Position numbers and translations under genes: made by a program
Part shown: one piece after another, positions 3,717 to 8,771 of the stretch
Position numbering within the stretch: the first letter of the stretch is position 1
Layout: every line of letters starts with the position of its first letter
Notes under the pieces: model-generated
Told to the model about the DNA's origin: nothing
The model's input: only the letters and a program-made list of their open reading frames with translations
Databases searched by the model: none
From: a virus
Taxonomy: Duplodnaviria; Heunggongvirae; Uroviricota; Caudoviricetes
DNA length: 43,551 nt
Direction: 5' to 3' (one strand)
IMG/VR virus record: IMGVR_UViG_2718217869_000004

Positions 3717-4111
3717 TTACAGGGGAAAAACCCCGTCAAATGTTGCCCCCGTATCGCTAGCACACAATGATTAAGTATCTTTTTCACTTTCGGAATTCAT
3801 CAATTCACAAAACCATCATTCCGATTTACCTTACATGCTCCTTTTAAATCTTTAACGGTGTGCACCACTTTTTCTAACTGCCCTATACTTTCAGTCTGAC
3901 ATACGGCTGGAGGTTTCTATGTGTGGACGCTTTTCACAGTCAATGACCCGTGAAGATTATCTTGCCCTTCTCGCTGATGAATCAGAACGCGATATTCCAT
4001 ACGATCCAGAACCCATCGGAAGATTCAACGTAGCGCCAGGAACAAAAGTTCTGCTTCTGAGCGAACGTGATGAGCAGTTGCATCTTGATCCAGTTATCTG
4101 GGGATACGCCC

Positions 4112-5450
4112 CATAAGCGCTAACTTAAGGGTTGTGGTATTACGCCTGATATGATTTAACGTGCCGATGAATTACTCTCACGATAACTGGTCAGCAATTC
4201 TGGCCCATATTGGTAAGCCCGAAGAACTGGATACTTCGGCACGTAATGCCGGGGCTCTAACCCGCCGCCGCGAAATTCGTGATGCTGCAACTCTGCTACG
4301 TCTGGGGCTGGCTTACGGCCCCGGGGGGATGTCATTACGTGAAGTCACTGCATGGGCTCAGCTCCATGACGTTGCAACATTATCTGACGTGGCTCTCCTG
4401 AAGCGGCTGCGGAATGCCGCCGACTGGTTTGGCATACTTGCCGCACAAACACTTGCTGTACGCGCCGCAGTTACGGGTTGTACAAGCGGAAAGAGATTGC
4501 GTCTTGTCGATGGAACAGCAATCAGTGCGCCCGGGGGCGGCAGCGCTGAATGGCGACTACATATGGGATATGATCCTCATACCTGTCAGTTCACTGATTT
4601 TGAGCTAACCGACAGCAGAGACGCTGAACGGCTGGACCGATTTGCGCAAACGGCAGACGAGATACGCATTGCTGACCGGGGATTCGGTTCGCGTCCCGAA
4701 TGTATCCGCTCACTTGCTTTTGGAGAAGCTGATTATATCGTCCGGGTTCACTGGCGAGGATTGCGCTGGTTAACTGCAGAAGGAATGCGCTTTGACATGA
4801 TGGGTTTTCTGCGCGGGCTGGATTGCGGTAAGAACGGTGAAACCACTGTAATGATAGGCAATTCAGGTAATAAAAAAGCCGGAGCTCCCTTTCCGGCACG
4901 TCTCATTGCCGTATCACTTCCTCCCGAAAAAGCATTAATCAGTAAAACCCGACTGCTCAGCGAGAATCGTCGAAAAGGACGAGTAGTTCAGGCGGAAACG
5001 CTGGAAGCAGCGGGCCATGTGCTATTGCTAACATCATTACCGGAAGATGAATATTCAGCAGAGCAAGTGGCTGATTGTTACCGTCTGCGATGGCAAATTG
5101 AACTGGCTTTTAAGCGGCTCAAAAGTTTGCTGCACCTGGATGCTTTGCGTGCAAAGGAACCTGAACTCGCGAAAGCGTGGATATTTGCTAATCTACTCGC
5201 CGCATTTTTAATTGACGACATAATCCAGCCATCGCTGGATTTCCCCCCCAGAAGTGCCGGATCCGAAAAGAAGAACTAACTCGTTGTGGAGAATAACAAA
5301 AATGGTCATCTGGAGCTTACAGGTGGCCATTCGTGGGACAGTATCCCTGACAGCCTACAAAACGCAATTGAAGAACGCGAGGCATCGTCTTAACGAGGCA
5401 CCGAGGCGTCGCATTCTTCAGATGGTTCAACCCTTAAGTTAGCGCTTATG
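4112..5450 (+). mobile_element. IS186 (IS4 family), 1339 bp, with 23-bp terminal inverted repeats and 10-bp target duplication
   Basis: Ends CATAAGCGCTAACTTAAGGGTTG ... CAACCCTTAAGTTAGCGCTTATG; flanking direct repeat GGATACGCCC at 4102-4111 and 5451-5460. Confidence 0.9.
4167..5279 (+). CDS. IS186 transposase (370 aa)
   Basis: Translation MNYSHDNWSAILAHIGKPEELDTSARNAGAL... matches the IS186 transposase; lies between the IRs. Confidence 0.9.
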   Translation: MNYSHDNWSAILAHIGKPEELDTSARNAGALTRRREIRDAATLLRLGLAYGPGGMSLREVTAWAQLHDVATLSDVALLKRLRNAADWFGILAAQTLAVRAAVTGCTSGKRLRLVDGTAISAPGGGSAEWRLHMGYDPHTCQFTDFELTDSRDAERLDRFAQTADEIRIADRGFGSRPECIRSLAFGEADYIVRVHWRGLRWLTAEGMRFDMMGFLRGLDCGKNGETTVMIGNSGNKKAGAPFPARLIAVSLPPEKALISKTRLLSENRRKGRVVQAETLEAAGHVLLLTSLPEDEYSAEQVADCYRLRWQIELAFKRLKSLLHLDALRAKEPELAKAWIFANLLAAFLIDDIIQPSLDFPPRSAGSEKKN

Positions 5451-5936
5451 GGATACGCCCCCGGTTGGTGGGATAAACCGCCGCTCATTAATGCACGGTC
5501 TGAAACTGCTGCCACCAGCAGAATGTTTAAACCACTCTGGCAGCATGGCCGCGCAATTTGCTTTGCTGATGGATGGTATGAGTGGAAAAAGGAAGGCGAC
5601 CAAAAACAACCCTACTTTATTCACCGGGCAGACGGTCAGCCGATTTTTATGGCGGCGATCGGCAGCACACCATTCGAACGTGGAGATGAAGCAGAAGGTT
5701 TCCTGATAGTTACAGCTGCAGCTGACAAAGGACTGGTTGATATTCACGACAGACGACCACTGGTACTGCTACCGGAAGCCGCGCGTGAATGGATGAGGCA
5801 GGATGTTGGAGGGAAAGAAGCAGCGGAAATTGCAGCCGACGGTGTTGTACCGGCTGATAAATTTATATGGCACGCCGTAACGCGTGCCGTCGGGAATGTG
5901 AAAAATCAGGGCGCCGAACTAATAACGCCAATATGA

Positions 5937-6358
<422 letters not shown>

Positions 6359-6360
6359 GG

Positions 6361-6603
6361 CTAAAGTCCTCCGTTTGGATTGAACAGCTGAAAGGTTCGG
6401 TTCTCGCCTTCCTGCGTTGATACATCGCGGAATGTTGTCACATAACATTCTATCCAATCGTTGGCCTGCTTCATCGTCCAGTGCCAGTTAACCTTACCCA
6501 GTTCCTGGACAAACCGCTGTGTGGTGACAGTCTTCCGGCCATTCGGTTCTCGCTGTATCGAAGCATGCCAGGCTATTTCAATATCGCTACGTTGTGGCAT
6601 CAT
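6361..6603 (-). CDS. Hypothetical small protein (about 80 aa) immediately upstream of and translationally coupled to the UmuD-like gene; possibly ImpC-like
   Basis: ORF MMPQRSDIEIAWHASIQREPNGRK...; its stop is 2 nt from the UmuD-like ATG; LexA box 40 bp upstream; start codon choice uncertain. Confidence 0.5.
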   Translation of the reverse strand: MMPQRSDIEIAWHASIQREPNGRKTVTTQRFVQELGKVNWHWTMKQANDWIECYVTTFRDVSTQEGENRTFQLFNPNGGL

Positions 6604-6642
6604 TAACCCCTTCTTGAACACTGGATAAAAAAACAGCATAAG

Positions 6643-6662
6643 CACTGTGTATCCATCCAGTA
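6643..6662. promoter_or_regulatory. LexA (SOS) box between divergent dinI-like and small-ORF/umuD-like units
   Basis: cACTGTgtatccatcCAGTa fits CTG-N10-CAG consensus TACTGT(AT)4ACAGTA; 16 bp upstream of the dinI-like start. Confidence 0.65.
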
Positions 6663-6677
6663 AAGAGGCAATAAGCA

Positions 6678-6920
6678 ATGTTCGTGGAACTCGTTTATGA
6701 CAAAAGGAATTTTGATGGCCTGCCCGGTGCAAAAGATATCATTCTGGGCGAATTGACTAAGAGGGTTCACCGGGTCTTCCCTGATGCTGATGTCCGGGTA
6801 AAACCGATGATGACACTGCCGGCGATCAACACTGACGCCAGCAAGCATGAGAAGGAACAGATAAGCCGTACTGTTCAGGAAATGTTTGAAAAGGCTGATA
6901 TGTGGCTGGTTTCAGATTAA
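6678..6920 (+). CDS. dinI: DinI family protein (DNA damage-inducible protein I homologue, 80 aa)
   Basis: Size and C-terminal ...QISRTVQEMFEKADMWLVSD resemble DinI (...QRISEILQETWESADDWFVSE); AGAGG RBS; LexA box upstream. Confidence 0.8.
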   Translation: MFVELVYDKRNFDGLPGAKDIILGELTKRVHRVFPDADVRVKPMMTLPAINTDASKHEKEQISRTVQEMFEKADMWLVSD

Positions 6921-7048
6921 ACGCCTTGAACCGTCATATTGCTTAAGTACAATCCGCCGTGACTGGCAATCATTCAATACTCGCACTATCGAACGTTCGC
7001 CAGTTCGTCGCCGCCCGTTCTTGCATACGACGACGCGGTGGCGTTTTC

Positions 7049-7600
7049 TCAACGCCGCGCAGGAAATTTTTTGTATAGCGTCGACACCCCTACATCATAA
7101 ATTATAGCCACACGTTTTCTAGACTCACCTGCAGCAATCAACCTTCCAGCCTGAGCCCACTCTTCTGCGGTTAACTTTGGTCGTCTGCCGCCGATCCGAC
7201 CATCTTCGCGCGCAGCAGCTAAGCCAGCCCGTGTTCGCTTAACAATAAGCTCTCTTTCCATCTCGGCAAGCGCCCCCATGACATGAAAGAAAAAGCGCCC
7301 CATTGGTGTTGAGGTATCTATACTGTCGGTCAGGCTACGGAAGTTTACCCCTCGCTCCCTCATTTCTTCGACCAGCACGACAAGATGCCGCATGCTGCGA
7401 CCGAGGCGATCCAGCTTCCAGACAACCAGAGTGTCACCTTCCGATAATGTCCTGAGCAGTTTTTTCAATCCCGGCCTTTCGGACTTTGTACCGCTTATCT
7501 TGTCTTCAAAAATCAGCTCGCATCCTGCACAGTTCAGCGCATTACGTTGTAGATCTGTGTTCTGGTCATTTGTTGACACACGTACATAGCCAATAAGCAT
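7049..7600 (-). CDS. pin: Pin/Gin-family DNA invertase (serine recombinase)
   Basis: MLIGYVRVSTNDQNTDLQRNAL...VVWKLDRLGRSM...HTH tail; typical resolvase/invertase motifs; next to the invertible tail-fibre segment. Confidence 0.9.
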   Translation of the reverse strand: MLIGYVRVSTNDQNTDLQRNALNCAGCELIFEDKISGTKSERPGLKKLLRTLSEGDTLVVWKLDRLGRSMRHLVVLVEEMRERGVNFRSLTDSIDTSTPMGRFFFHVMGALAEMERELIVKRTRAGLAAAREDGRIGGRRPKLTAEEWAQAGRLIAAGESRKRVAIIYDVGVSTLYKKFPARR

Positions 7601-7654
7601 GGTAGATCTCCCTGACAAAAGCAGGGATGATGCCATTTGCTCGTTATTTCTGCA

Positions 7655-7680
7655 TTTTCATAAATGTTGGTTTGGGAGAA
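7655..7680. other. Inversion crossover site 1 (gix/pix-like 26-bp site)
   Basis: TTTTCATAAATGTTGGTTTGGGAGAA; reverse complement shares half-site TCTCCCAAACC-AA with site 2 and resembles gix TTATCCAAAACC. Confidence 0.65.
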
Positions 7681-8169
7681 GGCTCTGCATTACCTGTTGG
7701 TGTCCCTGTTCCGTGGCCCTCAGCCACTCCGCCAACAGGCTGGCTAAAATGCAACGGAGCAGCTTTTTCTGCTGAAGAATATCCGGAACTGGCAAAGGCT
7801 TACCCGACAAATAAATTGCCTGATTTACGCGGTGAATTTATCCGTGGCTGGGATGACGGGCGTGGTATTGATGCTGTACGTGCCTTGCTAAGTCTTCAGA
7901 ATGGAGGAGTGGAATCACACACCCACCAAGGGCAGCTCTTCAGAGTTAGTGATTATCGTACAAAAGAAATACCAGCATCAGAAGTTATGGGAAGAGGATA
8001 TATTGCAAGCCTGACGCCGGGTGCTGATAGCCCACTTGATTTTGATGATTATTCTGTATCTTCTAATCCAAATGGATATTTTGTCGGGAATCAGAGAACA
8101 ACAGCATATGGGATAAATGAAACCCGTCCACGGAATATTGCATTTAACTATATCGTGAGGGCTGCATAA
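7669..8169 (+). CDS. Alternative tail-fibre C-terminal variable segment (silent in current orientation)
   Basis: ORF ...GAAFSAEEYPELAKAYPTNKLPDLRGEFIRGWDDGRGID... typical fibre tip; frame at the crossover site matches the constant fibre N-terminus after inversion. Confidence 0.7.
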   Translation, partial: GLGEGSALPVGVPVPWPSATPPTGWLKCNGAAFSAEEYPELAKAYPTNKLPDLRGEFIRGWDDGRGIDAVRALLSLQNGGVESHTHQGQLFRVSDYRTKEIPASEVMGRGYIASLTPGADSPLDFDDYSVSSNPNGYFVGNQRTTAYGINETRPRNIAFNYIVRAA

Positions 8170-8771
8170 TGGATAATGCTGTATTAAATAGCGAGTTTAT
8201 TGCTACAAAGGCGGGGAATATTACCGTCTATAACTATGATGGCGAAACACGGGAATATATTTCCACATCAACTGAATATCTTGCCGTTGGTGTCGGTATC
8301 CCTGCATATTCCTGTTTAGATGCCCCTGGCACATACAAAGCTGGTTATGCAATCTGCCGATCTGTAGATTTTAACTCATGGGAATATGTGCCAGACCATC
8401 GCGGTGAAATCGTCTTTAGCACCGAAACAGGAGAATCAAAAGAAATCACAGCTCCGGGTGATTACCCTGATAATACAACCACTATCGCCCCGTTAACGCC
8501 ATACGATAAATGGGATGGTGAGAAATGGGTGACGGATACCGAAGCACAGCATAGCGCCGCAGTAGATGCAGCAGAAGCACAGCGCCAGTCACTGATTGAT
8601 ACTGCAATGGCTTCAATCAGTCTGATTCAGCTGAAATTGCAGGCCGGACGTAAACTGACGCAGGCAGAAACAACCAGCCTTAACGCTGTGCTGGATTACA
8701 TTGACGCGGTGACGGCAACAGATACCAGCACCGCGCCGGATGTCATCTGGCCTGAACTGCCGGAGGCGTAG
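8169..8771 (+). CDS. tfa: Tail fibre assembly protein (Tfa, alternative cassette)
   Basis: MDNAVLNSEFIATKAGNITVYNYDGETREY... Tfa-like; conserved C-terminal ...DAVTATDTSTAPDVIWPELPEA shared with the other Tfa. Confidence 0.8.
   Translation: MDNAVLNSEFIATKAGNITVYNYDGETREYISTSTEYLAVGVGIPAYSCLDAPGTYKAGYAICRSVDFNSWEYVPDHRGEIVFSTETGESKEITAPGDYPDNTTTIAPLTPYDKWDGEKWVTDTEAQHSAAVDAAEAQRQSLIDTAMASISLIQLKLQAGRKLTQAETTSLNAVLDYIDAVTATDTSTAPDVIWPELPEA

Follow-up and report, generated by a model that had tools for sequence, protein, structure and literature searches.

The DinI homologues of the Gifsy prophages have been placed under LexA and DNA-damage control by experiment (PMC3121763; PMC8072944). They were up 14- to 23-fold under nalidixic acid (PMC8072944, Table 1), mitomycin C led to accumulation of the Gifsy-2 DinI homologue, and replacement of the box-containing region upstream of Gifsy-2 dinI by araC-PBAD abolished mitomycin-dependent prophage activation (PMC3121763). 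[quoted passage not shown] In phage phiKO2, genes 22 (DinI-like) and 23 (UmuD-like) are divergent and situated next to tail-fibre genes, and for the stretch between them the GenBank record AY374448 lists a 'lexA; binding site' together with a rightward -35 and overlapping -10 signals. The phi80 dinL record likewise includes a 'predicted LexA binding site'. Small DinI-like proteins are likewise tied to SOS-controlled mobile-element operons in impCAB of plasmid TP110 and in Tum of phage 186. In impCAB, the DinI-like gene and the genes for the UmuD and UmuC homologues all run in one direction. In Tum, the DinI-like part is fused to an antirepressor (PMC3121763, Discussion).

Here we present the sequence analysis of a locus of this kind in a 43,551-nt stretch of Caudoviricetes DNA (IMG/VR record IMGVR_UViG_2718217869_000004), hereafter referred to as the window, which is identical to a sequence in Escherichia coli Ecol_545. 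Judging from its genes, the window is a complete-looking e14-like prophage with an integrase, a CI-like S24 repressor, ymfT/ymfL, lysis genes, terminase, capsid, contractile tail and a pin invertase. The module of interest is located at the accessory end, between the pin invertase/tail-fibre genes and the icd' attachment remnant, and is adjoined by an SRAP (YedK-like) gene and an HNH endonuclease gene. Divergent dinI-like and umuD'-like genes, one gap with predicted LexA operators and a position next to tail-fibre genes were all found here, as in phiKO2. The module therefore is, by sequence comparison, an ordinary member of the known LexA-controlled dinI/umuD' accessory modules of temperate phages, and the arrangement is real, though not new, as it can be found in the annotations of phages such as phiKO2. 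Particular to the window are seven clustered substitutions in the operator and a UmuD'-like gene frameshifted by a (CCAG)n tract. The 74-bp gap at 6604-6677 is, with high probability, a two-way, LexA-repressed control region of this accessory module. The features of the module are listed below by their positions in the window; HI denotes the LexA heterology index.

5937-6358, minus strand: HumD/UmuD'-like gene, out of frame in the window and marked 'frameshifted' by PGAP
6250-6293, no strand assigned: (CCAG)10 tetranucleotide tract, as read on the coding strand, within the HumD-like gene
6361-6603, minus strand: orf80, 80 aa, phrog_3893, predicted winged-helix protein, first gene of the leftward operon, unannotated by PGAP
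6614-6642, plus strand: putative rightward (dinI-like) promoter, -35 TTGAAC at 6614-6619, 17-nt spacer, -10 CATAAG at 6637-6642
6619-6638, no strand assigned: LexA box 1, CACTGGATAAAAAAACAGCA, HI 8.50, lineage-specific
6635-6664, minus strand: putative leftward (orf80/UmuD'-like) promoter, -35 TTTACT (complement of 6659-6664), 18-nt spacer, -10 TATGCT (complement of 6635-6640)
6643-6662, no strand assigned: LexA box 2, CACTGTGTATCCATCCAGTA, HI 7.79, the site of an earlier note on this DNA
6678-6920, plus strand: DinI-like gene, 80 aa, intact, Shine-Dalgarno AAGAGG at 6663-6668

Gene products of the module

The rightward gene was labelled by PGAP as DinI family protein WP_024234288.1, and its membership of the DinI family was evident from the Pfam DinI model (E 1.6e-20; 73.6 bits against a gathering cut-off of 24.2). 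The NCBIfam equivalog of chromosomal E. coli DinI (NF007893) was not reached, at 41.7 bits against a cut-off of 111, and by its sequence the product is a phage-type DinI-like paralogue, 61-74% identical to its counterparts in Gifsy-2, phi80, HK225 and phiKO2. As in Gifsy-1, -2 and -3, the first gene is DinI-like and opens with the same N-terminus, its ATG lies 16-19 nt from a LexA box, and an accessory operon is under host LexA, which for the window is a prediction; the Gifsy-2 copy shares the N-terminus MFVELVYDKRN and the same 16-nt distance from box to ATG. The window departs from the Gifsy arrangement in that dinI has no gene behind it in its own direction, the pin gene being convergent, in that its partner operon is transcribed divergently, and in that the prophage encodes a CI-like S24 repressor. 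The proposal that the DinI-like product tunes RecA, and so prophage induction, is a matter of pure inference; such feedback is plausible given the CI-like S24 repressor of this prophage. In Gifsy-1 and Gifsy-3, induction was not significantly changed by non-polar deletion of dinI (PMC3121763, Discussion).

The first leftward gene, orf80, is a real gene of a conserved family, matching phrog_3893 at E 1.3e-36, and the index of the assembly collection lists the identical protein in 389 blocks. Its 103 homologues are mostly 79 aa long, and many of them are labelled 'DNA polymerase V'; this is a mislabelling. Nothing was returned for orf80 from Pfam, NCBIfam or PADLOC. The AlphaFold2 model, built on a 40-sequence alignment, has a pLDDT of 91 and a pTM of 0.81 with the element order helix-strand-helix-helix-strand-strand, and a winged-helix fold is confidently predicted for the family. 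Its C-terminus, FQLFNPNGGL, is nearly invariant; a by-eye reading of it as a beta-clamp-binding motif was dropped, as it does not fit the QL[SD]LF form of that motif. The partial 'hypothetical protein' that PGAP calls on the plus strand at 6481-6582 is probably spurious, with no family match and an antisense position to the conserved orf80.

Translational coupling of orf80 to the UmuD-like gene had been proposed earlier. The TAG stop of orf80 (6363-6361) stands 2 nt before the ATG (6358-6356), with GGAGG upstream; what the proposal had missed is that the UmuD'-like ORF is frameshifted. This ORF opens with MGFPSPASDY, and the C-terminal part of the S24 gene belongs to the HumD family (NCBIfam HumD, 154 bits against a cut-off of 120). 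An intact relative aligns with UmuD' (1umu) from the first residue of the chain (E 9e-24); as the protein begins at the UmuD' N-terminus, RecA-mediated cleavage would be unneeded. The residue aligned with the catalytic serine of UmuD, which we take to be Ser60, is a histidine, and the neighbouring lysine (Lys97) is retained. The alignment from the UmuD' start and the histidine at the serine position fit a pre-processed, non-cleaving UmuD' analogue, and such the HumD-like protein looks to be. It resembles phage P1 HumD and E. coli UmuD' in starting at the UmuD' N-terminus and in matching the HumD model, and differs from them in the histidine at the catalytic position, in the variable (CCAG)n tract and in being out of frame.

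Tandem Repeats Finder reported the tract at 6250-6293 as GCTG x 11.0 with 100% matches. With its ten CCAG units the frame of the window copy meets a stop after 60 codons, and consequently the leftward operon can here deliver only the 80-aa protein and a 60-aa stub. Among 16 near-identical assemblies the number of units was 8 (n=1), 9 (n=4), 10 (n=2), 11 (n=4), 12 (n=1) or 13 (n=4), where the count of 10 for strain AH01 was taken from its 100% identity to the window. Eight and 11 units restore the frame and yield proteins of 137 and 141 aa, respectively, and the gene is frameshifted in 11 of the 16 assemblies. Unit number thus varies among near-identical genomes across both in-frame and out-of-frame states, as expected of a contingency locus, and the ancestral tract in relatives has at most two units, read as ISQPAATYF. 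From its sequence, (CCAG)n looks like a slipped-strand on/off switch, which would be unusual for E. coli; a literature search for a tetranucleotide phase switch in an umuD-like gene of an E. coli prophage returned nothing relevant.

LexA boxes in the intergenic region

The earlier note had described one SOS box of the form CTG-N10-CAG at 6643-6662, 16 bp upstream of the dinI-like ATG and 40 bp upstream of the divergent 80-aa ORF. Re-reading of the sequence bore out the motif as well as both distances: the ATG is at 6678 with 15 nt in between, and the minus-strand start of orf80 is at 6603 (6643-6603 = 40). This operator account holds for box 2, and it had overlooked the second box at 6619-6638. 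The CTG-N10-CAG palindrome lies inside the 20-mer at both positions; the two boxes are spaced 24 bp from centre to centre and jointly form an imperfect 17-nt inverted repeat.

The bare CTG-N10-CAG pattern is unspecific, with 26 matches in the whole window against 10.5 expected, and HI scoring was therefore used instead. The HI matrix was recovered from 140 published pairs of sequence and HI for candidate boxes of E. coli K-12 (PMC12527982, Table S1) as a symmetric, additive fit that reproduces all 140 values with a largest residual of 6e-5, and it is exact for sites that retain CTG and CAG. Known E. coli boxes have HI values of 4.31 (recA), 6.98 (uvrA), 8.32 (lexA box 2) and 9.19 (ruvAB) (PMC12527982, Table S1), and the low-HI cluster, taken there as able to bind LexA, reaches about 13.6 (PMC12527982). 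The boxes of the Gifsy dinI homologues are given as 3.9-4.6 (PMC8072944, Table 1), and that of the Gifsy-2 dinI-like copy scored 2.94.

Matrix scoring, which had been suggested as a check on the site, gave box 2 an HI of 7.79, in the range of working SOS boxes, and together with the 8.50 of box 1 this keeps both boxes under the limit of about 13.6 for the LexA-binding range. Only two of the 26 CTG-N10-CAG sites in the 43.5-kb window fall below HI 16; they are adjacent to each other and both in the intergenic gap, and the third-ranked site stands at 16.45. By chance the whole window would be expected to hold about 0.005 sites at HI <=7.79 and about 0.009 at HI <=8.5. The CTG-N10-CAG match at 6464-6483 was ruled out as a LexA site (HI 21.4). 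Box 2 is a good predicted host-LexA operator, and this assignment is supported by comparison.

One line of comparison comes from 18 orf80 loci, namely 15 genome loci (from Citrobacter, Klebsiella, Pseudescherichia, Kluyvera, Erwinia, Kalamiella and Raoultella) and the phages HK225, Eeyore and phiES15. Of these, 17 have a box of HI<10 no more than 50 bp upstream of orf80, although the upstream flanks are for the most part unrelated, and elsewhere in 89.7 kb only three more such sites occurred. The recurrence of the box despite unrelated flanks provides independent comparative evidence for a LexA-controlled leftward operon. A UmuD'-like ORF (MGFPSPA.. or a close variant, about 92-129 aa) follows orf80 directly in 16 of the 18 loci. 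UmuD'-like genes were found without orf80 too, and orf80 without a nearby UmuD'-like gene was not found, except at two Erwinia-group loci with no called downstream ORF. The phage search gave no P1 match, and hence no orf80 homologue beside humD.

Another comes from relatives of the module; related S24/DinI modules are present in about 257 complete E. coli genomes. The ATG of the UmuD'-like gene directly abuts the same gap, without orf80, in Nissle 1917 and strain GDSC2BY4G; in isolate SC476 and in Citrobacter orf80 is present. The gap of the window can be aligned base by base to that of relatives in Nissle, in other E. coli and in Citrobacter, where box 2 is near consensus. It is homologous both to the single strong box of these relatives (typically TACTGTATATCCATCCAGTA, HI 3.3-4.95) and to the phiKO2 box (HI 2.82).

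Divergent promoters and proposed regulation

The consensus promoter/terminator scan found no promoter in the 6604-6677 gap, so that the promoter model rests on homology; the sole promoter-like match of the scan within 5900-7100 was at 6926-6953, downstream of dinI. No Rfam RNA family was matched in the module region. In six relatives the gap contains TTGAAT-17-TATAAA followed directly by a box of HI 2.5-5.9, and in phiKO2 TTGACA-17-TATAAA; the putative rightward hexamers of the window are homologous to both. On the opposite strand the relatives and phiKO2 have TTTACT-18-TATACT (9/12 consensus matches), with the box of the relatives inside the spacer, and the corresponding hexamers of the window, at 8/12, are under the scan threshold. 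The control DNA is thus homologous to that of phiKO2, but phiKO2 has one near-consensus box, stronger hexamers and no orf80, whereas the window has orf80 inserted, two medium boxes and the frameshifting repeat tract. The features annotated in AY374448 (rightward -35, both -10s and lexA site) are 18 nt off the motifs described here (phiKO2 locus L038, 1420-1490), and the leftward -35 agrees only if the record coordinate is 100 nt out, which we take to be a typing error.

If the homologous hexamers are the working ones, two sigma-70 promoters would face away from each other with overlapping -10 hexamers, of which four nucleotides are shared. Box 2 spans the expected rightward start site, fills the leftward spacer and overlaps the leftward -35; box 1, as its mirror image, overlaps the leftward -10 and start region. 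In an undamaged cell host LexA would occupy box 2, and in this lineage box 1 probably as well; with the boxes placed over both promoters the two transcripts would be shut off together. [quoted passage not shown] The rightward transcript would then supply a DinI-like protein that may bind RecA filaments, and the leftward transcript the 80-aa winged-helix protein. With the repeat tract in frame, the leftward transcript could also supply a ready-processed UmuD' analogue, which might join host UmuC for translesion synthesis.

Divergence of the operator and alternative explanations

The lineage of the window has an unusual operator. Relative to the nearest relative, divergence amounts to 1/243 in dinI, 1/128 in the downstream spacer and 10/74 in the gap, and seven substitutions unique to the lineage are clustered in 31 bp (6619-6649). 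They weaken the rightward -35, both -10s (TATAAA to CATAAG; TATACT to TATGCT) and box 2 (HI 3.9 to 7.8), such that the -10 hexamers and box 2 are weaker here than in every relative compared. At the box 1 position the relatives carry TACCGGATAAAAACACAGTA, with CCG in place of CTG, and one of the lineage substitutions (C to T) turns CCG into CTG, making box 1. As box 1 is absent from relatives, and its N10 spacing is disrupted by a 1-bp deletion in one near-identical assembly (L035), it may not matter. Among 5,426 complete E. coli genomes this operator allele occurred in 7 and the consensus type in 78, with no intermediates. The earlier view of a host-LexA-controlled accessory module at the prophage end is partly upheld by sequence comparison, with the reservations that the HumD-like gene is frameshifted and the promoter hexamers are weaker than those of relatives.

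These changes bear on the main rival explanation, namely that the gap descends from a working SOS operator in a module that is being lost, where LexA may bind while the promoters are too weak for meaningful output. A concentration of substitutions in both -10s, the rightward -35 and box 2 beside a nearly unchanged dinI would suit such decay, as would the failure of any promoter to pass the consensus scan, the frameshifted HumD-like gene of most assemblies and the IS4-split SRAP gene next to the module in this genome. Against it, the dinI-like and orf80 frames are intact across hundreds of assemblies, both boxes still have HI < 9, and the operator is identical in 15 of the 16 lineage assemblies examined; the new CTG, and with it a second box, looks like remodelling and not decay. 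We regard the loss of the module as unlikely on this balance, though it deserves the most weight among the alternatives.

The palindromes could also be operators of a phage-encoded LexA-family protein in place of host LexA, for which the prophage offers two candidates, its CI-like S24 repressor and a 108-aa 'LexA family transcriptional regulator'. However, the boxes match the host LexA matrix, the immunity region of the window has no other such site, and phiKO2, HK225, the Nissle prophage, Gifsy-2 and Erwinia prophages all carry the same box at the corresponding place. A single phage repressor common to such a range of phages and genera would be unlikely, and control by a phage-encoded regulator is very improbable. 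A chance match to a loose consensus, to which the 26 bare matches in the window might lend some colour, is hardly credible for two adjacent intergenic sites of HI < 9, against an expectation of 0.009, that are homologous to annotated LexA sites elsewhere.

Implications

On the preferred reading of a two-way control region, with LexA control predicted, the host SOS regulon would gain one more prophage operon. A lysogen suffering DNA damage would have an additional protein that binds RecA filaments, and some strains an additional ready-made UmuD' as well; this could alter the duration of the SOS response, the level of mutagenesis and possibly the timing of cleavage of the CI-like prophage repressor. 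The main value of the analysis is in annotation, with orf80 omitted by PGAP here and its homologues labelled 'DNA polymerase V'. More useful leads than the box itself are the conserved winged-helix protein with predicted SOS control and the hypervariable repeat in the UmuD'-like gene.

A bolder reading, which we hold to be rather improbable, would make orf80 and the UmuD'-like protein a working pair, in which an SOS-induced winged-helix partner directs or regulates the pre-processed UmuD', (CCAG)n switches the mutagenesis-related half and the operator substitutions are adaptive retuning. If true, LexA or UmuDAb would have in this pair a counterpart made of two pieces; alternatively, the pair would act as a targeting factor in translesion synthesis. 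Switching of (CCAG)n at high frequency, if true, would place mutability under a contingency locus, a rarity in E. coli.

Neighbouring features of the prophage end

The SRAP (YedK-like, SOS response-associated peptidase) gene at 3919-5936 is interrupted by an IS4-family element (IS421 according to PGAP, transposase at 4167-5279) and is whole (222 aa) in sister genomes. SRAP, DinI-like and HumD-like genes constitute a small DNA-damage-related gene cluster, with no LexA box of HI<16 near SRAP. On the other side of the module, at 7049-9231, the pin-type invertase lies beside tail-fibre genes and tail-fibre-assembly genes of opposite orientation; this is an invertible host-range segment of the usual kind, and its orientation or composition varies among sister genomes. 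The prophage attachment remnant is marked by an icd fragment at about 655-822, and the minus strand at 469-592 matches the Rfam family STnc490 (Hfq-binding sRNA) with 146 bits, adjoining an IS200C transposase gene at the start of the window.
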